Source: Candidatus Adlerbacteria bacterium | Lineage (GTDB): Bacteria; Patescibacteriota; Minisyncoccia; Phycocordibacterales; SBAW01 | Length of the DNA stretch: 64,000 nt | Direction of reading: 5' to 3' | Assembly: GCA_963749085.1 (NCBI GenBank) | Contig: CAVVLG010000003.1 | Coordinates: 219,380-283,379 of the forward strand | In this document: piece after piece, positions 4,179 to 37,712 of the stretch | Layout: the number at the start of each line of letters is the position of its first letter | Position numbering within the stretch: the first letter of the stretch is position 1 | Made by a program: the position numbers and the translations under genes | Notes under the pieces: model-generated | Database searches by the model: none | What the model was told of the DNA's origin: nothing | What the model saw: the letters and a program-made list of their open reading frames with translations, nothing else

Positions 4179-4496
4179 GGATTATTTGGATTGTGTCCTT
4201 TATCCACAGTTATTGTCCTTTACAATGTCTTTTATATCCGTATAGTTACTGCAGACTAGTTGTTTACTAAATCATTCTGCCCTGTATGAATTGGTAGCAG
4301 CACCTGTTCTTTGTGTGCGCTGCAGCATTAGGGTCATATCATTAATTCATTGTCACCCGGACATTGGTGTGGAAATCTCTCAATTTGCTCTAAATTTTTG
4401 GATTAAAACACACTTAAAATATCTGGCAGAACCAAAAGGTTCCTAGTTGATGATATTCCGACCCAAACCCCGATCACTCTTGGTCGGGGTTTTGTA

Positions 4497-5385: not shown

Positions 5386-5580
5386 ATGAACAAAAAACCC
5401 GACTTGCGCCTAGTGAAGGGAGAGGAGGGGCAGCCCGGAGAGCCCACACCTGCAGCGCAGGAGGAGCCTGAGTACGGCAGCTATGCCTATTTTCTCATCC
5501 TTACGAACGGGGACCGGAAAGCGGCAGAGGAAGCCTATGCGGAGTTTCTCCAGTGGGACGTTCCACAACCCTATCAATAA
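5386..5580 (+). CDS. Small hypothetical protein (64 aa)
   Basis: An AGGAGGGA Shine-Dalgarno lies 7 nt upstream of the ATG. A GACGCG...CGCGTC hairpin plus T5 terminator (5585-5621) lies directly downstream. Confidence 0.4.
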   Translation: MNKKPDLRLVKGEEGQPGEPTPAAQEEPEYGSYAYFLILTNGDRKAAEEAYAEFLQWDVPQPYQ

Positions 5581-5616
5581 GGCTGACGCGGTTCATAGGT
5601 TGTGAATCGCGTCTTT

Positions 5617-6588
5617 TTATTTCCTTCTCTTGCCGTGGAAGTTTTTGTGAACCTCTCTCAAATGTTTGTCGGTAATGTGGGTATAGACCTGTGTGGTTGA
5701 GATATTTGAGTGTCCTAACAATGCTTGCACGGAGCGCAAATCGGCACCGTTCTCAAGCAAGTCGGTGGCGAAGGAATGACGGATAACATGTGGTGTAACT
5801 TTGCGCGTGATGCCAGCTTTGGTGGCGTAGTGCTTAACGATACGCTCGACTGAGCGGGGCGTGAGCCGCCGATCCTTAGAATTTTTTGCGTTCTTGCCCA
5901 TTTGCACGAATAACGCGTCATCGATATCACCGCGCTTATCCAAATATTCTTTTGTGGCCTTTTTGGCGGTGGGGGAGAGAAAGACGACACGAACCTTCTC
6001 GCCCTTACCGCGGATGGAAAATTCATCCCTAGAAAGGTCAATGTCACGGTCGAGCGAGCAGAGCTCGGAGACCCGTAAACCAGTACTAAATAGAAGTTCC
6101 ATAATCGCCTTGTCGCGCAACGAAGCGAGAGCGGTGTTTTTGTCTTTGCTGCTTGAAGTTGCATTTGGTCCATCCATGAGTCGCCCGAGTTCATTGCTCG
6201 AAATAAGGTCAAGATCCCGCGCGCCAACTTTGGCGAGCTCTATTCTTTCGGGGTTAAGCGACTCAATCCCTCGTTTGCGCATATATTTGAGGAATGCGCG
6301 CAGTGCAATGAGGTAATAATTCTGGGTTTTGTGCTTCATAGTGCCCGCCACACCCTCTTGGCGGTTGAGATGCAGGCGAAACTCGCGTATGAGGTTTTCC
6401 GTGAGCTTCCCCGGCGAATTTATTTTTGCGTATGCGAAAAATCGAGTGAGATAGCGGTCATAGTTCTCGACCGTCTTTACACTGCGGCCTTTTTCTATCT
6501 CCAAATATTCCAAAAACTGGGTCTTGAGTTCTTTTAGATCCACCACACTCCAAGTGTCGCACAATTTTATTTTGACCGCTATACGCAA
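5617..6588 (-). CDS. Tyrosine site-specific recombinase (XerC/XerD family)
   Basis: The C-terminal catalytic region is RHSFATDLLENGADLRSVQALLGHSNISTTQVYTHI. The N-terminal core-binding domain is FLEYLEIEKGRSVKTVENY. Confidence 0.85.
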   Translation of the reverse strand: MRIAVKIKLCDTWSVVDLKELKTQFLEYLEIEKGRSVKTVENYDRYLTRFFAYAKINSPGKLTENLIREFRLHLNRQEGVAGTMKHKTQNYYLIALRAFLKYMRKRGIESLNPERIELAKVGARDLDLISSNELGRLMDGPNATSSSKDKNTALASLRDKAIMELLFSTGLRVSELCSLDRDIDLSRDEFSIRGKGEKVRVVFLSPTAKKATKEYLDKRGDIDDALFVQMGKNAKNSKDRRLTPRSVERIVKHYATKAGITRKVTPHVIRHSFATDLLENGADLRSVQALLGHSNISTTQVYTHITDKHLREVHKNFHGKRRK

Positions 6589-30019: not shown

Positions 30020-31043
30020 AGAAATACTCGTTTGTGTGCTCATCGCTTTTTTTGCTTTCGCGGGCGTAACTCATGCGCAGTCGACCGACGGAGTGCCTCC
30101 TCCGGTGCAATATAACGTGGCGCCCGAAACGCCAGGACCAGATACACCGGTTACCATTACGGTTCAGGGGGTTGGCACTTTTTTGGGCAATTCAAATGTT
30201 ATCTGGTCGCAAGACGGTGCAGTCGTTTCCTCAGGTGTCGGAGACAGCAGTTATTCCTTCACTACGGGGGCGCTCGGGCAAGTAACGACCATACATGTGG
30301 AAATAGACTCCGCCACAGAAGGCACCATAACGCAGGACTTCACTATTAATCCTTCGTTGGTTGACTTAGTGTGGGAGGCCGATACCAGTGCTCCTCCTTT
30401 TTATAGAGGCAAACCGCTTTATAGCGCGGGCTCAGGACTTAAAGTAGTTGCCTTTCCAATAGTGATCTCAAATGGCACTCGGGTTGCTGCATCAAGCCTC
30501 TCGTACCAATGGACGCGAGATAGTGTACCCCAGGCGGCAGCTTCCGGACTTGGAGAAAACACGTTCTCTTTTACGGGCGACCAATTGCAAACGGGGGAAG
30601 ATGTTGAGGTTGACATTTATCTTGGCAATACGCTGGTAGGCCAGGGTGAAGTCGTGATTCCGAGTTCATCTCCTCAAGTGGTGCTCTATGATCAAGACCC
30701 TCTGCGCGGTACGTTATACGATGAAGCGTTGCCGAGTGCGATATCGCTCGACACTAAAGAGTTAACCGTGCAGGCGGTGCCGTACTATTTTTCAAACACG
30801 AGCATAAGCGACGGCGCACTCTCTTATAGCTGGACGCTTAACGGCAACACCATAACCGGCCCTGAATCCGCGCAGGGGATACTGACCCTACTGCAAACGG
30901 GAAGTGGAACGGGCGCGGCGAATCTCGCCGTATCGGTGCAGAACAATGATCCTGATAAATTGGTACAAGCGGCAAGTGCGGCGCTCCAAATTGTATTCGG
31001 GCAATCAACAGGTTCTAGCCCTTCATCATTCTTTGGACCATGA
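29976..31043 (+). CDS. Hypothetical secreted protein (signal peptide)
   Basis: The signal-like N-terminus is ILVCVLIAFFAFAGVTHAQ. No recognisable domain. Confidence 0.45.
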   Translation: MKIYDHHKLMHKLHKEILVCVLIAFFAFAGVTHAQSTDGVPPPVQYNVAPETPGPDTPVTITVQGVGTFLGNSNVIWSQDGAVVSSGVGDSSYSFTTGALGQVTTIHVEIDSATEGTITQDFTINPSLVDLVWEADTSAPPFYRGKPLYSAGSGLKVVAFPIVISNGTRVAASSLSYQWTRDSVPQAAASGLGENTFSFTGDQLQTGEDVEVDIYLGNTLVGQGEVVIPSSSPQVVLYDQDPLRGTLYDEALPSAISLDTKELTVQAVPYYFSNTSISDGALSYSWTLNGNTITGPESAQGILTLLQTGSGTGAANLAVSVQNNDPDKLVQAASAALQIVFGQSTGSSPSSFFGP

Positions 31044-31978
31044 AAAAACTGCTTTTAAATGCGGGGTTGTTCTCTCTTTTGTTTTCCATAGGTATGCTCG
31101 TTCCCGTCGTGCATGCACAGGTCGGCGGTATACCTGAATATACAGGTAGCCCTCCCTCGACATCGGCGCCAAATTATAATTGTCCTTCCGGTCAGACCTA
31201 TTCATCAACTGGTAGTAATGGGTCAGGTGGGTGTGTTGCCTTACCTACGACAGCAAACCCAGCTGGCACACCAACTAACGGTTCTAATCTCACTTATACC
31301 CCCCTTGAACCGATACCAGGTGCAACCACAAATGCAAACGGAACCGCGCTTAGTTTTCCGGCGCTGATAAATAGTATGTTTACCGTTCTCTTTACTGTAG
31401 GAGCACTGTTTGCGGTGCTTATGCTCACAATAAGTGGCATACGGTATATGCTCTCGGATGTCGTCATTAATAAAGAGAGAGCAATAAAACGTATTACAGC
31501 CTGTATCTACGGCCTACTCCTCTTAGCTGGCACGTGGCTCATACTGAACACCATAAACCCACAGCTACTTAATTTTACACTCATTCCGTGTCCACAGGGA
31601 AGTACCGGATGTACGATCACGGGTGCACCACCGACAAATACAACGCCTCCACCAAATCCTTATTCTTCTATTTCATTTCAACAGGCGGTACAAAACGAGC
31701 AGACGGTTCAAAACGCAATTACAGATAATACCGACGCGCAAAATGCACAGACATACGACCAATCTAACTGTGCTTCTATCGCCCAGCAACAAACTGCGCT
31801 CGTCCAAACGGCAAGTGCTCCCCCAGCGGGGGGTGGTCAGGGCTGTGTCATTAACGTAAGTGGGATGTTCGGGAGTGTAGGCAACACCCAATGCCTCTCT
31901 TATAGAGTACAGTATCAATCATTTTGCGACCAACTCGCAGAATGCCAGTCGGATGGGAACGGTACTTATAATTGTTGA
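31040..31978 (+). CDS. Candidate T4SS pilin-like protein (VirB2/TrbC-like topology) with a signal peptide, a Pro/Thr-rich spacer, two adjacent TM helices and a Cys-rich C-terminus
   Basis: The signal peptide is MKKLLLNAGLFSLLFSIGMLVPVVHAQ. The paired helices are FTVLFTVGALFAVLMLTISGIRYML and ITACIYGLLLLAGTWLILNTI. The assignment rests on topology and genomic context only. Confidence 0.4.
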   Translation: MKKLLLNAGLFSLLFSIGMLVPVVHAQVGGIPEYTGSPPSTSAPNYNCPSGQTYSSTGSNGSGGCVALPTTANPAGTPTNGSNLTYTPLEPIPGATTNANGTALSFPALINSMFTVLFTVGALFAVLMLTISGIRYMLSDVVINKERAIKRITACIYGLLLLAGTWLILNTINPQLLNFTLIPCPQGSTGCTITGAPPTNTTPPPNPYSSISFQQAVQNEQTVQNAITDNTDAQNAQTYDQSNCASIAQQQTALVQTASAPPAGGGQGCVINVSGMFGSVGNTQCLSYRVQYQSFCDQLAECQSDGNGTYNC

Positions 31979-31987
31979 TTTAATAAA

Positions 31988-33226
31988 ATGAAAAACACTT
32001 TTACACTACTATTTAGTGCCGTAATAATTTTACTTTTGATATTCCTTGCAATTTGGTTTTTCTTTTTCCGACCATCTGCGCCGGGGCAAACTACACCTAC
32101 CTCTTCTTTCGGCACAGCAGCAAATAATTCAACGACGGTTACGAGCAACACCTCTTCAAACTCAACCCAGTCGACCAATGTGCCGTTAACGCAATCTGCC
32201 GCACAAAAGATATTTGAAATTGCGACAGGTCCAGTGGTCGGCGCAACGCTGATACAGACGCTCGACCCTACGACCACCCTCGCGCGATACATAGATGCAG
32301 ATGATGGTCATGTGTATGACTTGCCGCTCGATGTTCCCGGTGCCATACCGCAGGTCGTCTCCGATACGACCATCCCTGGCGGTGTGGACGCTATCTGGGT
32401 AGACGACGGCAATGCGGTAGTCATGCAGTACCTCGATACTAGCGATGCGGTAAAAACGCTATATATGAACTTCCAAGTTACAACCTCGAGTTCTTCTTCA
32501 CTTGAGGCGACCAAAATACTATTTTTGCCAAACAATATCATCGGCATCGCTGCCTCTCCTGACGGCAAGGACGTCGTATATCTGCTCCAAACCGCAAGCG
32601 GCTCTGACGGCTATACCGCAAAGGCAGACGGCACCGGTGCCAAAAAACTATTTTCTCTCCCACTCTCGCAGATGATTATTTCTTGGCCTTCGAAGGGTAC
32701 CCTCTTGGCGTATACCAAATCGGCTGCAGGCGTACCCGGTATTGTGTTTGCAATCGACGTTAAAAGTGGAAACGTGACGCCGCTTGTGTATGCCGACGGT
32801 ATCACTGCGACGGCTGACCCGACATTTGCGAATGTCATTTATCAGGTGGTATTAAGTGATGGGTCTGCGCCGATTACCTACATTCACAACGTTAGCACTG
32901 GACTTAATCAGGCTGCCGATTTCAATCCTGCCCCTGAAAGATGTATCTGGAGTGAAATTGTCACCTCATTTATGTACTGCGCTATTTCGACCGTAGATAC
33001 GCAATCAAATTTCCTCGACTTGTGGCATCAAGGCGAAACTGGCGGAGGGGATGCTATCTTTTCTTTTGACGTCTCTAAGAATACTGACAATCTCGTTGCA
33101 GCTCTTTCGAACAGTATGGGGTCAAGCGATATTTCAGAAATGGCACTCTCGCCCGATGAGCACTATCTCGACTTCGTGACCAAAGGCGACCGAACGCTGT
33201 GGGGTGTGCGCCTTACACAACCGTAG
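31988..33226 (+). CDS. N-terminally anchored extracytoplasmic protein, probably a beta-propeller (TolB/WD40-like) fold
   Basis: The TM segment is FTLLFSAVIILLLIFLAIWFFFF. Repeated SPDGK/SPDE blade-like motifs are present. Confidence 0.4.
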   Translation: MKNTFTLLFSAVIILLLIFLAIWFFFFRPSAPGQTTPTSSFGTAANNSTTVTSNTSSNSTQSTNVPLTQSAAQKIFEIATGPVVGATLIQTLDPTTTLARYIDADDGHVYDLPLDVPGAIPQVVSDTTIPGGVDAIWVDDGNAVVMQYLDTSDAVKTLYMNFQVTTSSSSSLEATKILFLPNNIIGIAASPDGKDVVYLLQTASGSDGYTAKADGTGAKKLFSLPLSQMIISWPSKGTLLAYTKSAAGVPGIVFAIDVKSGNVTPLVYADGITATADPTFANVIYQVVLSDGSAPITYIHNVSTGLNQAADFNPAPERCIWSEIVTSFMYCAISTVDTQSNFLDLWHQGETGGGDAIFSFDVSKNTDNLVAALSNSMGSSDISEMALSPDEHYLDFVTKGDRTLWGVRLTQP

Positions 33227-33689
33227 TCCCTTGCGTCGAACGATACTTCAGTACGATGTGGCGAAATTTTCCTTCGCCTTCTGACACTGTCTTTATCTCC
33301 GGATCTTCAGCAAACAACTCATGCACTACTAACCGCTCGTAGGAAGAGAGCGGCTCCATCTCGACATCGTGCTTAAAAAGCCGTGCACGCTGCGCAAGCA
33401 TGCGAGCGGCCGAGCGTACGTGTTCAAGCTGATCTTCGTGGTAATTGTTAACGTCAATAAGGAAGTTCGCTACTTCCTCGCCGTGGTGGGTTTCTACGAG
33501 CCTGCGCGCGAGTGTATTGAGCGCGCGTAAATGCTCCCCATGAGGACCGATAAGGAGTTTGGAATCCTGCGAAGTAATCCGTACGACCGTGCGGTGACCA
33601 TTGTCTATCTCTACGGCCGCGTTCTCAACTCCCAACTGGGAGAGAAGGTCGGTGATATGTTGTTTGAGAAGCTCCGGGTTCATGCGCAC
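33213..33689 (-). CDS. jag: Jag/KhpB-like RNA-binding protein (KH + R3H domains)
   Basis: The segment VVRITSQDSKLLIGPHGEHLRALNTLARRLV is KH-like and FRHIVLKYR is R3H-like. It is downstream of yidC in the canonical operon. Confidence 0.7.
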   Translation of the reverse strand: MRMNPELLKQHITDLLSQLGVENAAVEIDNGHRTVVRITSQDSKLLIGPHGEHLRALNTLARRLVETHHGEEVANFLIDVNNYHEDQLEHVRSAARMLAQRARLFKHDVEMEPLSSYERLVVHELFAEDPEIKTVSEGEGKFRHIVLKYRSTQGTTVV

Positions 33690-33724
33690 ACAATACCCTA
33701 AGAGACTCCTCTATCGCAACTTGA

Positions 33725-34447
33725 CTACTTTTTTTTCCTGAGTTCGCGGCGTATGAGCCACTCCTGGCCCAAAGAAATAACGTTGCCGGTGGCAAAATAA
33801 AGGCCGGCCGCCGAAGGGAGGGTGAAGGAAATGACCGCAAAGAGGCCGGGCATGAAATACAGCATCATTTTTTGCTGCATCGCTTGCGCCTGCGCTTTTT
33901 CAGGCGAGAGTGACTTTGATTTCGGGGTGCGCATAAGCGAGAGATGGATAACCGCGTATTGGAGCAAGCCGACTACCAAGGCAAGAATGATATTGTGCGC
34001 GTTGGAAAGATTTAAAAATCCCAAGAACTGCAAATTAACGTTTACGGGATTCGAGACGAACGAATAGAGGAGCGTAGTGGCAACATGGGGAAGTCCTCCG
34101 TCTTCGCGAAAGAATGCGTAGTACAAGGCGATGAATATAGGTATCTGCACCAGAATGGCAACAAAACCGGCGAGTGGGCGGATATTGCGCTCCTTGAAAA
34201 GCGCCATGGTGTGTTTTGCCTTTTCGTCGGGGTTGTCTTTGTATTTTTTATTTATTTCATCGAGCTCACCTTGCGCCGCCGCCATGCCCATTTGGGTTCG
34301 TATGGACGCGCTGAAGGCCGGATAAAACAGAACGCGCATCACCACCGTCATGGCGATGATAGCGAGCCCCACGTCGCCGTGCGGCATGACGTCGATGAGG
34401 AAGATAAACGCGTTGTAGAGGGGTTGTATTAAGTAAGTTTGGAACAT
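33725..34447 (-). CDS. yidC: Membrane protein insertase YidC/Oxa1 (short Gram-positive type)
   Basis: The motifs LAIIAMTVVMRVLFYP and IRPLAGFVAILVQIPIFIALYY are present. Its position is after rnpA. Confidence 0.85.
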   Translation of the reverse strand: MFQTYLIQPLYNAFIFLIDVMPHGDVGLAIIAMTVVMRVLFYPAFSASIRTQMGMAAAQGELDEINKKYKDNPDEKAKHTMALFKERNIRPLAGFVAILVQIPIFIALYYAFFREDGGLPHVATTLLYSFVSNPVNVNLQFLGFLNLSNAHNIILALVVGLLQYAVIHLSLMRTPKSKSLSPEKAQAQAMQQKMMLYFMPGLFAVISFTLPSAAGLYFATGNVISLGQEWLIRRELRKKK

Positions 34448-34728
34448 AAGGTTTTAACTTCGCGTCGTATAGCTTCAAGGGATGCCGCTTTGCGGACAAA
34501 AAACACAACATGCGCGCGGGGAAGTTTCGTGAGCTCCCGGTAGACGCTGCGGCGCAATGCATTTCGTAAGATCGCCTTCTTAGCTGTCTTCTTTGATACC
34601 ACGACGGCTACTTTTCCAGTCGACGTCGCTATCCATTTTACCGCTAAAGGGCCGCTTGAGAGCGAACGGCCTTCTTTGAGAACACGGCGAACCTCAACGG
34701 CCCTTAAACGACGCGAAGCGGGAAGCAT
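34429..34728 (-). CDS. rnpA: Ribonuclease P protein component
   Basis: The motifs MLPASRRL...VVVSKKTAKKAILRNALRR are present. It lies 4 nt downstream of rpmH. Confidence 0.85.
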   Translation of the reverse strand: MLPASRRLRAVEVRRVLKEGRSLSSGPLAVKWIATSTGKVAVVVSKKTAKKAILRNALRRSVYRELTKLPRAHVVFFVRKAASLEAIRREVKTLCSKLT

Positions 34729-34732
34729 GGCG

Positions 34733-34867
34733 CTACACCGAGAGCCTCGCACGCCCCTTGCGGGCGCGCCGCTTCAATGTCGCGCGGCCTCCGGCGGTTT
34801 TTGTGCGCTTCAAATACCCGTGCGAGCGAGCGCGTTTGCGCTTTTTGGGTTGATAAGTTTGCGACAT
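34733..34867 (-). CDS. rpmH: 50S ribosomal protein L34 (44 aa; below the ORF-track length cutoff)
   Basis: The minus strand translates to [44 protein letters not shown]. Confidence 0.85.
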
Positions 34868-34910
34868 GACTAGAACCATATCACACCATATAGCCTATAT
34901 ACAACTTCCC

Positions 34911-35171
34911 CTACCCGTATAGTTCGGAGTGAGTTCCAATTTTTATAAAAAGCACGATGTCCTGTCTTATTGGTTCATAGATAGCCCGAAAATTCCCGGT
35001 TATATTGATGCTTCGATAACCTGCATACGCTCCATGCAGTGCATGGTTATCAAGAAGCGGATGAAACGGATTTTTGAGAAATAAATCTCGGCGTTCTTGG
35101 AATTGTTCTTTAATCTTCTTTGGCAACTTGTCAAATCGCTTTACAAAACGATCGTCAAGAATTATTTTCAT
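34911..35171 (-). CDS. Type II toxin, RelE/YafQ-family mRNA interferase
   Basis: Length is 86 aa. The motifs DNHALHGAYAGYRSINITGNFRAIY are present. It overlaps the upstream antitoxin ORF by 4 nt. Confidence 0.65.
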   Translation of the reverse strand: MKIILDDRFVKRFDKLPKKIKEQFQERRDLFLKNPFHPLLDNHALHGAYAGYRSINITGNFRAIYEPIRQDIVLFIKIGTHSELYG

Positions 35172-35449
35172 GCACGCCGATTAAGCCACGCGTCCATCTC
35201 TTTACCGGAAGAAAATGCTGGAGAAACGTTTTTTCCTTTCCGGAAATCTGCGCTCGCTTTGCGGAGTTCCCGTCCGGTCTTGGCATTAGGTATTTCTCTG
35301 CGCACGATGCCGATACCATACTCTCCTTCCGCAAACTTTTCCGTCGCCATTTTGAGAAAGGAAGCAAAAGGGACGCCTTCCCGCTTGGCTCGCTTCATCG
35401 CTTTAGCCTTAATCTTCGGATCGATGTTAAATACAATTTGGGTGGTCAT
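35168..35449 (-). CDS. Type II antitoxin, RelB/DinJ-like (RHH)
   Basis: Length is 93 aa. The N-terminus IVFNIDPKIKAKAMKRAKREGVPFASFLK is RHH-like. It sits immediately upstream of the RelE-like toxin. Confidence 0.6.
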   Translation of the reverse strand: MTTQIVFNIDPKIKAKAMKRAKREGVPFASFLKMATEKFAEGEYGIGIVRREIPNAKTGRELRKASADFRKGKNVSPAFSSGKEMDAWLNRRA

Positions 35450-35539
35450 ATATATAGCTTATACATAGCTCAGATATATGTCAACTTCCACCGCAGCCTG
35501 GGCAAGCCCCCCTGTACTGTGTGCAAGGTGTCCCGCTGT

Positions 35540-35779
35540 CTATAAATTTTTATAGGTACCCTCGTTGCGTAGCCCTATGTGATCAATGATAAGCACCTGG
35601 TGCTCGTAATGAAAGACTATTCTGAGACGACCCTTCCGAACGCGGAATTTTTCATGGCCAGAAAGCCTGACAACATTGAGACTGTGAAAGTTTCTCGTCA
35701 GCAATCTCTCAACCATTTCTTCCAACTGGGCGCGCTGTTTCTTATTTAACTTTCGAAGAAGTTTTTCGTGCTCGTTCAT
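35540..35779 (-). CDS. Type II toxin, RelE/ParE family
   Basis: Length is 79 aa. The segment FRVRKGRLRIVFHYEHQVLIIDHIGLR has the typical RelE/ParE C-terminal pattern. It overlaps the upstream antitoxin. Confidence 0.65.
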   Translation of the reverse strand: MNEHEKLLRKLNKKQRAQLEEMVERLLTRNFHSLNVVRLSGHEKFRVRKGRLRIVFHYEHQVLIIDHIGLRNEGTYKNL

Positions 35780-36032
35780 GCGTTTTTATTCTGCGGAGTA
35801 TGCGCAGCACCTCGCCACCCGCAATGCCCTTGCCTTTATTATCGCGGTCAGCATCAAAAATAGTGCCCCACTCTACTTCGCTTTCCCCAGCGTCCACCGG
35901 AGCCATGCGAAATACCGGTTTCGAGCGCCGCAATACCGTAAATGAAGAACCGCGCTCGACGTCCTTTATGTATTTGTCGAGATTAACGCGTAACTCCTTA
36001 AGTCCAACGAGATTATGTTTAGCCATATCCAT
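35742..36032 (-). CDS. Type II antitoxin, Phd/YefM family
   Basis: The segment LVGLKELRVNLDKYIKDVERGSSFTVLRRSKPVFRMAPVD has a Phd/YefM fold signature. The ORF extends to 36062. Confidence 0.6.
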   Translation of the reverse strand: MDMAKHNLVGLKELRVNLDKYIKDVERGSSFTVLRRSKPVFRMAPVDAGESEVEWGTIFDADRDNKGKGIAGGEVLRILRRIKTHERARKTSSKVK

Positions 36033-36169
36033 AAGTTTATCCTCAGATGAACTTTGAGTCAAATCGTCCTGTCAAATGTGGTTTATACACACGTTCTCCA
36101 CACCTTATGCACAAAACTGCAAATTTTGACTCGGGGAGAAGAGACGGGTATCCTTGGTTACGACTCGCC

Positions 36170-37513
36170 ATGACAACTACGAAGGAACTCTGGGAAAATG
36201 CACTGGTTGAGCTCGAGCTCACCATATCAAAACCGAATTTCAACACGTGGTTTAAAGATACACACATCGTGAGAGTGGAGGACGGCGCGGTCCACCTCGG
36301 CGTCCCCTCGCAATTCGCCCGCGACTGGCTCTCCACCAAGTTCCACAAGGATATTCTTCGCTCCCTGCGCGGGCTCTCCGAGAACGTGCGGGTGGTTGAG
36401 TACGTTATTTCCCGCAGCGCCAAGAAAACGAGCGAGGAAGTGGCGCTCTCAGTCCCGGCCGCCGCTCAAGAACTTCCCCTTGAGGCGGTACATCCAAAGA
36501 CCAATCTTAATCCGCGCTTCACGCTTGGCTCTTTCGTTGTGGGACCCTTCAATGAACTCGCCCATGCGGCAGCGCAGGCAGTCATACGCAAGCCCGGCAT
36601 CGCTTACAACCCGCTCTTGGTGTACGGGCCCACCGGTTTGGGCAAGACGCACCTCATACAGGCGGTGGGAAATCATTTCCGCATGAGCGCGCCGGAGCGA
36701 AAGGTCTACTACACCACCTCGGAGAAGTTCTCCATGGACTATGTGTCATCGCTTCAGAGCAACAAAACACAAAGCTTCAAGGAAAAATACCGGCAGTACG
36801 ACCTTCTCATCATGGACGACATTCAATTTCTGGCCGGCCGAGACAAAATAAAGGAGGAATTCTTCCATTTGTTCAACTTTTTGCACGACAACAACAAACA
36901 ATTGGTCTTCTCCTCCGACCAGCACCCCAACGTCATCCAAAACCTCGAGGATAGGCTCAAATCGCGCTTTGCAGCGGGCATGGTGGTCTCGGTGACACCG
37001 CCCGATCATCAATCGCGTTTGGCCATTGTGCGTTCAAAAGCGGCCGCTCACGGCGTCATGATGCCAGATGAGGTGCTCGAATACCTGGCTGCCACGGTTG
37101 AGGGCAACGTACGGGAGCTTGAAGGCGCTCTAAACACGCTTCTCATACAGTTTGAGATGCGCGGCAATCCCTTGACGTTGAGCGACGCCAAAACGCTCCT
37201 GCGCGGCGCGGGGGCTGCCACAAAAAAGGCGGTGTCGGTGCAGGAAGTGGTCAAGACTATTGCCAGTTTTTACGGAGTGGAGGAGACGAGTATTTATGAG
37301 AAGACGCGGCGCAAGGAAGTGGTGCGCCCGCGCCAGGTGATTATGTATTTATTGCGCGAGGATTTTCGCATTTCCTTCCCCACCATAGGGGAGAAACTCG
37401 GTGGACGCGATCACACCACCGTCATTCATTCCTGCGAGAAAATACGCAATGACATTCTTGGGGATAGTGTGCTTTCTCAGGAGGTACATCAGATTCGTCT
37501 GATGTTGAAATGA
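36170..37513 (+). CDS. dnaA: Chromosomal replication initiator protein DnaA
   Basis: Walker A is LLVYGPTGLGKTHL. The AAA+ sensor motifs and the C-terminal DNA-binding helix GEKLGGRDHTTVIHSCEKI are present. The ORF opens at 36047; the start is taken at MTTTKELW. Confidence 0.9.
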   Translation: MTTTKELWENALVELELTISKPNFNTWFKDTHIVRVEDGAVHLGVPSQFARDWLSTKFHKDILRSLRGLSENVRVVEYVISRSAKKTSEEVALSVPAAAQELPLEAVHPKTNLNPRFTLGSFVVGPFNELAHAAAQAVIRKPGIAYNPLLVYGPTGLGKTHLIQAVGNHFRMSAPERKVYYTTSEKFSMDYVSSLQSNKTQSFKEKYRQYDLLIMDDIQFLAGRDKIKEEFFHLFNFLHDNNKQLVFSSDQHPNVIQNLEDRLKSRFAAGMVVSVTPPDHQSRLAIVRSKAAAHGVMMPDEVLEYLAATVEGNVRELEGALNTLLIQFEMRGNPLTLSDAKTLLRGAGAATKKAVSVQEVVKTIASFYGVEETSIYEKTRRKEVVRPRQVIMYLLREDFRISFPTIGEKLGGRDHTTVIHSCEKIRNDILGDSVLSQEVHQIRLMLK

Positions 37514-37712
37514 TGGGGAGAAGTGGTAGAAATACGCGGGGATAATTGGGGATAAGAAAAGAGAAACATTCTCTGATGAAGACTTTATGAAACTTACCAC
37601 CACCTTATCAAAAAACGGAGTGTATAAAAAAGCCTTTAATAATAATGGTTTTATCGACTTCTCCCCCTATCCACAGAGCTAATAGTAATAGTAGTTTTTA
37701 TATAGATACTTT

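Follow-up and report, generated by a model that had tools for sequence, protein, structure and literature searches.

Introduction

The genes considered here have their closest described counterparts in a small number of type II toxin–antitoxin (TA) systems, namely HP0894-HP0895 of Helicobacter pylori, DinJ-YafQ and RelE of E. coli, the archaeal-type RelBE systems, and YefM-YoeB and Phd-Doc. It is already known that toxins and antitoxins of different families can be combined in such pairs, and catalytic residues differ widely among active members of the RelE superfamily. The DNA under study, a stretch of 64,000 nucleotides from contig CAVVLG010000003.1 of Candidatus Adlerbacteria bacterium (hereafter the window), carries two gene pairs of this kind between rpmH and dnaA. 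Both pairs are ordinary members of known families, and it is their location that is unusual among relatives. The evidence presented below makes it very probable that they are two independent, horizontally acquired type II TA mini-operons lying in tandem in the rpmH–dnaA spacer, with the DnaA-box/dnaA-promoter block left intact, and that the site is a permissive landing pad.

TA modules have been reported in Patescibacteria, with HigAB, AbiE, and YafQ described in Strigamonas (PMC13059738), and also in Nealsonbacteria (bioRxiv 10.1101/2022.04.20.488981); the view that reduced genomes are largely without TA systems is repeated, as a hypothesis, in one paper (PMC12455944). No relevant paper emerged from a literature search for TA modules located between rpmH and dnaA. 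An earlier note on this DNA had considered two TA modules remarkable for a small genome, a point that carries little weight because TA modules are not rare in Parcubacteria.

Results

Two antitoxin–toxin gene pairs between rpmH and dnaA

The four open reading frames (ORFs) described in the earlier note are present on the minus strand at the coordinates it gave, as two antitoxin-then-toxin pairs between rpmH and dnaA. In the first pair (cassette 1), the gene for antitoxin 1 (35168–35449, 93 amino acids) precedes that for toxin 1 (34911–35171, 86 amino acids), and the two share 4 nt (ATGA, 35168–35171). In the second pair (cassette 2), the gene for antitoxin 2 (35742–36032) precedes that for toxin 2 (35540–35779, 79 amino acids) and the overlap is 38 nt (35742–35779), so that the expectation of an overlap of at least 4 nt in each pair holds. 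The start of antitoxin 2 was corrected: the ATG at 36026, giving a protein of 94 amino acids, is more likely than 36032, giving 96, because the homologues begin MAK…. The layout is that of type II operons, with small co-directional genes, the antitoxin first, overlapping reading frames, and promoter-like elements that are conserved with copies elsewhere. The dN/dS ratio against homologues was ≤0.09 for all four ORFs, a value to be read qualitatively since dS was saturated. Because each ORF has homologues together with this low ratio, none is a chance ORF, and the comparisons indicate purifying selection on all four.

The insertion is bounded on the left by rpmH (ribosomal protein L34; 34733–34867, minus strand; PF00468, 63.9 bits) and on the right by dnaA (36170–37513, plus strand; PF00308, 213 bits, plus PF08299 and PF11638). 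Comparison with relatives placed the rpmH start at 34867 in preference to an in-frame ATG further upstream (34879), because the GACAT start context matches that of 15 relatives, and placed the dnaA start at 36170 and not at 36047. The spacer between the two genes is 1302 bp.

The same spacer was then compared in related bacteria, using 76 genome loci that carry both genes and 71 metagenome loci, about 147 in total. The distance was ~100 bp in 70 of the 76 genomes (median 106 bp, 71 genomes), and the metagenome loci had a median of 111 bp. Around 90% of the 147 loci thus have a spacer of ~100 bp, and homologues of the four proteins were found within 4–6 kb of dnaA in none of them. Set against medians of 106 and 111 bp, the 1302 bp measured here supports the claim that the genes were inserted into a normally short region. 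The DnaA of the window is 80–88% identical to that of many metagenome-assembled genomes (MAGs) labelled Adlerbacteria, Paceibacterota, or Patescibacteria.

In 15 relatives the ancestral spacer follows a common layout: the rpmH ATG directly abuts GTGTCAAAT, and there are three DnaA-box-like sites in 11-bp phase and a promoter, TTGAC-17-TATGCT. In the window, positions 36066–36169 (plus strand) are collinear with this ~100-bp spacer at an alignment score reached by none of 300 shuffles, and this segment retains DnaA-box-like sites at 36083, 36094, and 36105 and a dnaA promoter, TTGACT-17-TATCCT, at 36126–36154. Since the ancestral block is intact at 36066–36169, the cassettes lie between rpmH and the DnaA-box/dnaA-promoter block. 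The 43-nt remnant between the toxin-1 stop codon and rpmH showed marginal similarity to the ancestral spacer (10 of 300 shuffles reached the score).

Two further accounts of the flanks were rejected. A target-site duplication through the 19-nt direct repeat at 34888/35452 is not needed, as similar AT-rich promoter sequence explains the repeat; and a duplicated spacer found no backing, the similarity of left and right flanks being nonsignificant (250 of 1000 shuffles reached the score).

It could be that assembly or binning had joined foreign TA-bearing DNA to a contig carrying rpmH and dnaA, especially as the source is a MAG. However, a separate Logan assembly of run ERR12036785 was 100% identical over 32540–36208 (3669 bp), covering both insertion junctions; collinearity with relatives extends on both flanks to the cassette ends; and the locus sits on a 306-kb contig. 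Such an artefact is therefore extremely improbable. The Logan contig (L092) stops at 36208, 39 nt into dnaA and near the insertion, which is the other observation that an artefact might draw on. This end could represent a strain-level branch in the assembly graph, that is, population heterogeneity for the insertion.

Homologous cassettes at other genomic sites

In other Parcubacteria, homologues of antitoxin 2 and toxin 2 (73–76% identity) occupy the site between rny and hup, with the 38-nt overlap kept; the toxin-2 homologues are recorded under the source name ‘Parcubacteria group bacterium’. The DNA homology of cassette 2 to these copies runs from exactly the TTGACT −35 element (36062) as far as the toxin stop codon. 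An antitoxin-1 homologue with 87% identity is found downstream of fusA in another genome (L089), and here the DNA homology of cassette 1 extends from TTGACA (35484) to the toxin stop codon. Each cassette is a self-contained unit of ~0.55 kb comprising promoter, antitoxin, and toxin. Because close homologues, including their promoters, occur in other genomic contexts, the cassettes are mobile.

The Parcubacteria contigs with cassette-2 homologues carry up to three further small TA-like pairs within 10 kb (L085:7532–8085; L086:559–1102 and 5533–6086; L081:1071–1699). These consist of a 93-amino acid protein with an 87-amino acid YafQ-like protein, of RelB with YafQ, or of a 79-amino acid protein with a Fic protein, and they are wedged among the housekeeping genes clpP, rny, hup, and htrA.

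Family and fold assignments

Toxin 1 is predicted from its sequence to be an mRNA interferase of the RelE/StbE-YafQ-HP0894 type. The earlier description of a RelE/YafQ-like toxin proved correct, in that the protein scored above the curated cutoffs of TIGR02385 RelE/StbE (40.7 bits, cutoff 27.9) and PF15738 YafQ (35.4 bits, cutoff 30); it also exceeded that of PF05016 (28.9 bits, cutoff 23). The protein aligned end to end with H. pylori HP0894 (PDB 4ls4, E = 1.6e-5), and in BLASTP it matched E. coli YafQ over the last 52 residues of that protein (E = 7e-9). In the latter alignment H43, H81, and Y85 of toxin 1 stand at YafQ H50, H87, and F91. The catalytic residues of YafQ are H50, H63, D67, and H87 in E. 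coli numbering.

Toxin 2 belongs to a family of ~80-amino acid proteins for which an exhaustive profile search returned >1000 cluster representatives. PF05016 ParE_toxin was matched by 38 of 53 aligned members (best E = 4.5e-7) and Gp49 by 12. When the family profile was compared with the PDB, RelE chains were matched over the range 8e-7 to 6e-3, including archaeal RelE (1wmi, 8e-7; 3bpq, 5.8e-6) and E. coli RelE (3e-3). The AlphaFold model of toxin 2 (predicted local distance difference test, pLDDT, 85; predicted template modelling score, pTM, 0.71) has helices at 3–10 and 13–27 and four strands, consistent with a RelE fold. The top nine Foldseek matches were RelE/HigB toxins with probabilities of 0.98–1.0, the best being M. 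jannaschii RelE (3bpq_B; probability 1.0, TM 0.69, E = 5.7e-3), and the model is also near M. tuberculosis RelE1/2, HigB, and T. thermophilus RelE. An hhalign comparison with E. coli RelE placed R46, R53, and R71 at K52, R61, and R81. Within the family R46, R48, R53, R71, and Y76 are nearly invariant, and the spacing suggests that Y76 corresponds to RelE Y87, so that toxin 2 would carry the basic residues and tyrosine of the RelE active site (K52, R61, R81, Y87). Family and structural comparisons thus support the assignment of toxin 2 as a short predicted RelE-type toxin of the RelE/ParE superfamily; the RelE/ParE-like label given to it before is borne out by the family matches and the RelE-like model and not by a hidden Markov model (HMM) match of its own.

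Antitoxin 1 has 102 homologues, mainly from the candidate phyla radiation (CPR), some of which are labelled RelB/DinJ antitoxin by JGI. Its AlphaFold model (pLDDT 82) begins with an extended segment, followed by helices at 11–24, 28–41, 56–70, and 82–92. The Foldseek list was headed by DinJ from the DinJ-YafQ complex and consisted almost entirely of ribbon-helix-helix proteins (DinJ, CopG, Arc, RelB, AtaR), every one of them at E > 0.1. Antitoxin 1 itself had no match to the RelB/DinJ model PF04221, and weak RelB matches were present in only four of 40 relatives (best E = 0.0029). An hhalign comparison gave E = 0.0026 at 11% probability for RelB and a weak E = 0.075 for DinJ, and the family profile found nothing in the PDB. 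On the basis of its architecture and gene context, antitoxin 1 is called a predicted ribbon-helix-helix-type antitoxin with C-terminal helices and not a demonstrated member of RelB/DinJ. The RelB/DinJ-like description therefore stands for the architecture and falls for an HMM or structure match to those families.

In the alignment of the antitoxin-1 family (A2, columns ~55–99), a single conserved ribbon-helix-helix N terminus is combined with two C-terminal variants, ‘...NAKT..E.R...D..KGKNLSP.FSS’ and ‘...RPEK...WERESR..D.GKG.R’. This pattern suggests that a toxin-binding module has been swapped between partner toxins.

Antitoxin 2 is supported as a Phd/YefM-related protein with a predicted N-terminal Phd/YefM-type domain. 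Its N-terminal 45 residues align with PF02604 and with VapB46 (PDB 6jqy), and its C-terminal half has no match. PF02604 was matched by 12 of the 13 family members (best E = 9.2e-7), and three homologues have precomputed PF02604 matches. The score of antitoxin 2 against TIGR01552 was 15.5 bits, compared with a cutoff of 20.8. The PDB searches made with toxin 2, antitoxin 1, and antitoxin 2 as single sequences returned merely coiled-coil or chance matches. Taken together, HMM, family, and structure evidence upholds the proposal of two type II TA pairs.

Promoter-like elements and a candidate operator

Cassette 2 has a promoter on the minus strand at 36033–36062, with TTGACT at 36062–36057, a 17-nt spacing, and TAAACT at 36039–36034 (scan 9/12), the −10 element lying 7 nt before the antitoxin-2 ATG at 36026. 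This promoter is conserved in the cassette copies at the rny–hup site of other genomes. An inverted repeat read directly from the sequence, AAGTTTATC-CTCA-GATGAACTT (36033–36054), overlaps the −10 element and is a candidate operator of cassette 2. The promoter-like region of cassette 1 (35450–35484, minus strand) has a −35 element, TTGACA, at 35484–35479 and a putative −10 element, TAAGCT, 6 nt before the ATG. From the −10 placements, the antitoxin mRNAs of both cassettes would be leaderless or nearly so.

A core promoter-like element also precedes rpmH (34868–34904, minus strand), with TTGTAT, an 18-nt spacing, TG-extended TATGGT, and 7 nt to the ATG. Its geometry is similar to that of relatives, in 12 of 15 of which TTGTGG-17-TATATT stands 6 nt from the ATG. 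This suggests that the rpmH promoter has been retained beside the cassettes and that rpmH transcripts are leaderless here too. The distance of exactly 6 nt from the end of TATATT to the ATG in those 12 relatives leaves no room for a Shine–Dalgarno sequence, and the second DnaA box, read in reverse complement, supplies the −35 element TTGTGG. This suggests that in this clade the rpmH mRNA is leaderless and that its promoter overlaps with the array of DnaA boxes, an array that the divergent dnaA promoter has in common with it.

Integrity of the modules and the extent of the element

Several results tell against two complete TA modules that arrived by transfer. Antitoxin 1 had no sequence match in Pfam, NCBIfam, or the PDB, and no significant match to RelB or DinJ in sequence or structure. 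Toxin 2 had no Pfam or NCBIfam match of its own. Antitoxin 2 scored 24.0 bits against PF02604 (E = 3.2e-5), under the cutoff of 29.8, so that the Phd/YefM-like label applies to it at the family level and not by its own score. Toxin 1 has N56 at the position of YafQ H63 and N60 at that of D67. The −10 element of cassette 1 is weak, was read from the sequence, and was called by neither promoter scan. PADLOC gave no match for any of the four proteins, and no integrase, transposase, recombinase, target-site duplication, or terminal repeat was found that would explain movement.

The two asparagines of toxin 1 would fit an account in which one module, or each of the two, is the remnant of a system in decay, with a toxin that is catalytically attenuated or inactive and a pair kept only as a harmless addiction relic or an orphan repressor. 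Cassettes of the first family do decay: in the closest copy, that of L089, an in-frame stop codon interrupts the toxin (L089:5279–5539) next to an intact antitoxin, which has the look of a module undergoing decay or of an orphaned antitoxin. However, in the window all four ORFs are intact with the low dN/dS given above, toxin 1 retains the equivalents of YafQ H50, H87, and F91, and toxin 2 has arginine at the RelE K52, R61, and R81 positions, with R71 and Y76 nearly invariant in its family. The variation of catalytic residues among active RelE-superfamily members also lessens the force of the two substitutions. Decay of either module is accordingly judged unlikely, though it is the most credible of the alternatives.

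The cassettes have a GC content of 0.45 (0.38–0.43 for the toxin genes), below the 0.51 of the window, and a T4SS_pilin-domain protein (PF18895, 35 bits) is encoded at 31040–31978, ~3 kb upstream. Both observations could be taken as signs that the four genes belong to a larger mobile element, or to a defence island, extending across the neighbourhood. Note, however, that the immediate neighbours are the conserved genes jag-yidC-rnpA-rpmH and dnaA-dnaN-PBP (penicillin-binding protein), that homology to the other cassette copies stops at the cassette borders, and that no paralogues of the four families occur elsewhere in the 64-kb window. The lack of a PADLOC match and of an integrase or transposase also counts here, in this case against the larger element, which is very unlikely. 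Among the neighbours, Pfam identified yidC (60KD_IMP), jag (R3H domain), dnaN, and dnaA with three DnaA domains; rnpA is named from synteny alone, as Pfam gave no match at E ≤ 1e-5 for the ORF in that position.

Other cargo in the spacer and the meaning of the location

A spacer longer than about 180 bp with other small genes was found in six of the 76 genome loci and nine of the 71 metagenome loci (~10%). One of these, L052 (JAUSIO010000067.1), whose DnaA is 81% identical to that of the window, carries at 842–2308 a TA pair on the rpmH strand, consisting of HicA (PF07927, 55 bits) and a HicB-like protein, and a 229-amino acid ORF with no Pfam match. Five loci carry a 23S-rRNA intervening sequence (IVS)/four-helix-bundle protein of 121–125 amino acids (L009:5441–5815, L016:5457–5822, L104:3450–3827, L106:3014–3391, and L109:3427–3801). 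It was identified by PF05635 (88 bits) in L009, the sole copy scanned, and by sequence similarity in the other four. The spacers of L101, L113, L114, and L116 contain unknown small or membrane proteins, and the ORFs of L101 and L113 had no Pfam match. As other cargo is present in ~10% of relatives, the spacer takes cargo recurrently, and TA genes are only part of it.

The MAG to which L052 belongs, JAUSIO01, has a second dnaA contig (L001) with a spacer of 112 bp, and the bin may mix two strains. In some relatives the IVS protein is accompanied in the spacer by an ORF of 154–172 amino acids of unknown function.

The position of the cassettes might itself be functional, their expression being coupled to DnaA occupancy and initiation, or read-through into rpmH-rnpA-yidC-jag tying arrest to an origin-proximal operon. 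In its favour, 20 nt separate the −35 element of cassette 2 (36062–36057) from the first DnaA box (36083), the ancestral rpmH-type promoter region is present as an orphan copy directed into cassette 2, both cassettes are co-oriented with rpmH with no minus-strand terminator-like site found between them and that gene, and HicAB occupies the equivalent site in another relative. However, rpmH has its own promoter-like element with ancestral geometry, homologous cassettes occur at unrelated sites (rny–hup and after fusA), the other cargo at the site is mostly non-TA, and ~90% of relatives have no cargo there. A functional position is thus improbable. A related idea, with a similarly slim chance of being correct, is that in this Patescibacteria clade the spacer acts as a hotspot into which leaderless mini-cassettes with promoters of their own, RelE-type and HicAB TA pairs among them, preferentially integrate. 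Lying between the DnaA-box array and the leaderless rpmH promoter, they would come under DnaA control or drive rpmH-rnpA-yidC by read-through; if true, it would mean that translation arrest is coupled to replication initiation. A permissive landing pad accounts for the location with no need for a replication-specific function.

The relation to the replication origin

The earlier note had placed the modules exactly at the origin, a statement that reduces to an inference from synteny. There are three or four DnaA boxes with one mismatch at 36037–36113, and the retained rpmH–dnaA spacer is not AT-rich (GC 0.44). The ‘box’ at 36037 was set aside: it falls within the promoter/operator of cassette 2, is not a box in the cassette homologues, and is probably outside the array. 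The spacer between dnaA and dnaN (37514–37712, plus strand) has a GC content of 0.35 compared with 0.44 and contains two DnaA-box-like sites; in 71 relatives its median length is 203 bp, with a GC content of 0.34 and two to three boxes. Judged by these features, the AT-rich dnaA–dnaN spacer is more likely to be the unwinding region of oriC. The box array upstream of dnaA fits autoregulation of dnaA, a sub-region of oriC, or both. No usable origin signal came from GC skew or gene orientation in the window. From synteny, it is plausible that the cassettes are origin-proximal.

DnaA boxes with at most one mismatch are enriched across the window, with 24 observed and 11 expected. Two perfect boxes (TTATCCACA) lie at 2433–2441 and 2453–2461, 20 nt apart and in equal orientation, in a noncoding spacer of ~290 nt (2197–2488) between tRNA-Pro (2123–2196) and tRNA-Gly (2489–2560). 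The same spacer has repeated motifs, with GTCAGATAT and TTCACGTGAAA each present twice, and additional perfect boxes are located at 4200 and 6795. The T4SS_pilin-domain protein sits in a long run of plus-strand genes (~10000–33226) reading towards the rpmH–dnaA locus, the reverse of the orientation pattern expected left of an origin.

Discussion

The sequence of events proposed here draws on what is known of the families concerned. The cassettes would have landed just upstream of the rpmH core promoter in the genome of an Adlerbacteria-like member of the Patescibacteria, each bringing a sigma-70-like promoter of its own, an antitoxin gene, and an overlapping toxin gene. By analogy with described systems, the N-terminal DNA-binding domain of the antitoxin, a ribbon-helix-helix in module 1 and a Phd/YefM fold in module 2, would repress its own promoter, and the C-terminal part would wrap around the toxin and neutralise it. 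Should the labile antitoxin not be replenished, the RelE-superfamily toxin would be expected to enter the ribosomal A site and cleave mRNA, arresting translation. The landing site would be a permissive spacer between divergent promoters in a gene-dense genome that receives varied small cargo, and a location there may well be neutral.

The locus documents the movement of intact RelE-superfamily TA cassettes from one intergenic site to another in streamlined CPR genomes. It also shows that small cargo is tolerated in the rpmH–dnaA spacer, which otherwise keeps rigidly to ~100 bp, and has been taken up there repeatedly. For annotation it is useful that antitoxin 1 and toxin 2 come from large families to which Pfam does not assign these sequences. 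The understanding of TA systems and of replication origins is unchanged by the finding.

In comparison with known systems, cassette 1 most resembles HP0894-HP0895 and DinJ-YafQ. Toxin 1 has the motifs D-x-H-x-L-x-G and G-T/S-H-x-x-L-F/Y in common with these systems, and its gene likewise lies downstream of the antitoxin gene with the 4-nt overlap, but it differs from YafQ in having asparagine where that protein has H63 and D67. The predicted layout of antitoxin 1, a ribbon-helix-helix domain followed by C-terminal helices, is like that of DinJ and RelB, whereas its mainly CPR family falls outside Pfam coverage. For cassette 2, the toxin-2 profile and model gave their best matches with the archaeal-type RelBE systems (M. 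jannaschii RelE3, PDB 3bpq; P. horikoshii aRelE, PDB 1wmi) and with E. coli RelE, and the basic residues of toxin 2 align with K52, R61, and R81 of the latter. Toxin 2 differs from these proteins in being only 79 amino acids long, in reaching no Pfam model alone, and in having a Phd/YefM-type partner in place of a RelB-type one. Antitoxin 2, for its part, resembles the YefM-YoeB and Phd-Doc antitoxins (PF02604) in its aligned N terminus and in the antitoxin gene coming first, but its partner toxin is predicted to be of the RelE type and not YoeB or Doc. Finally, the HicAB pair of L052 resembles the two cassettes as a small type II TA pair on the rpmH strand in the equivalent spacer, and differs from them in belonging to an unrelated TA family and in being accompanied by the 229-amino acid ORF.

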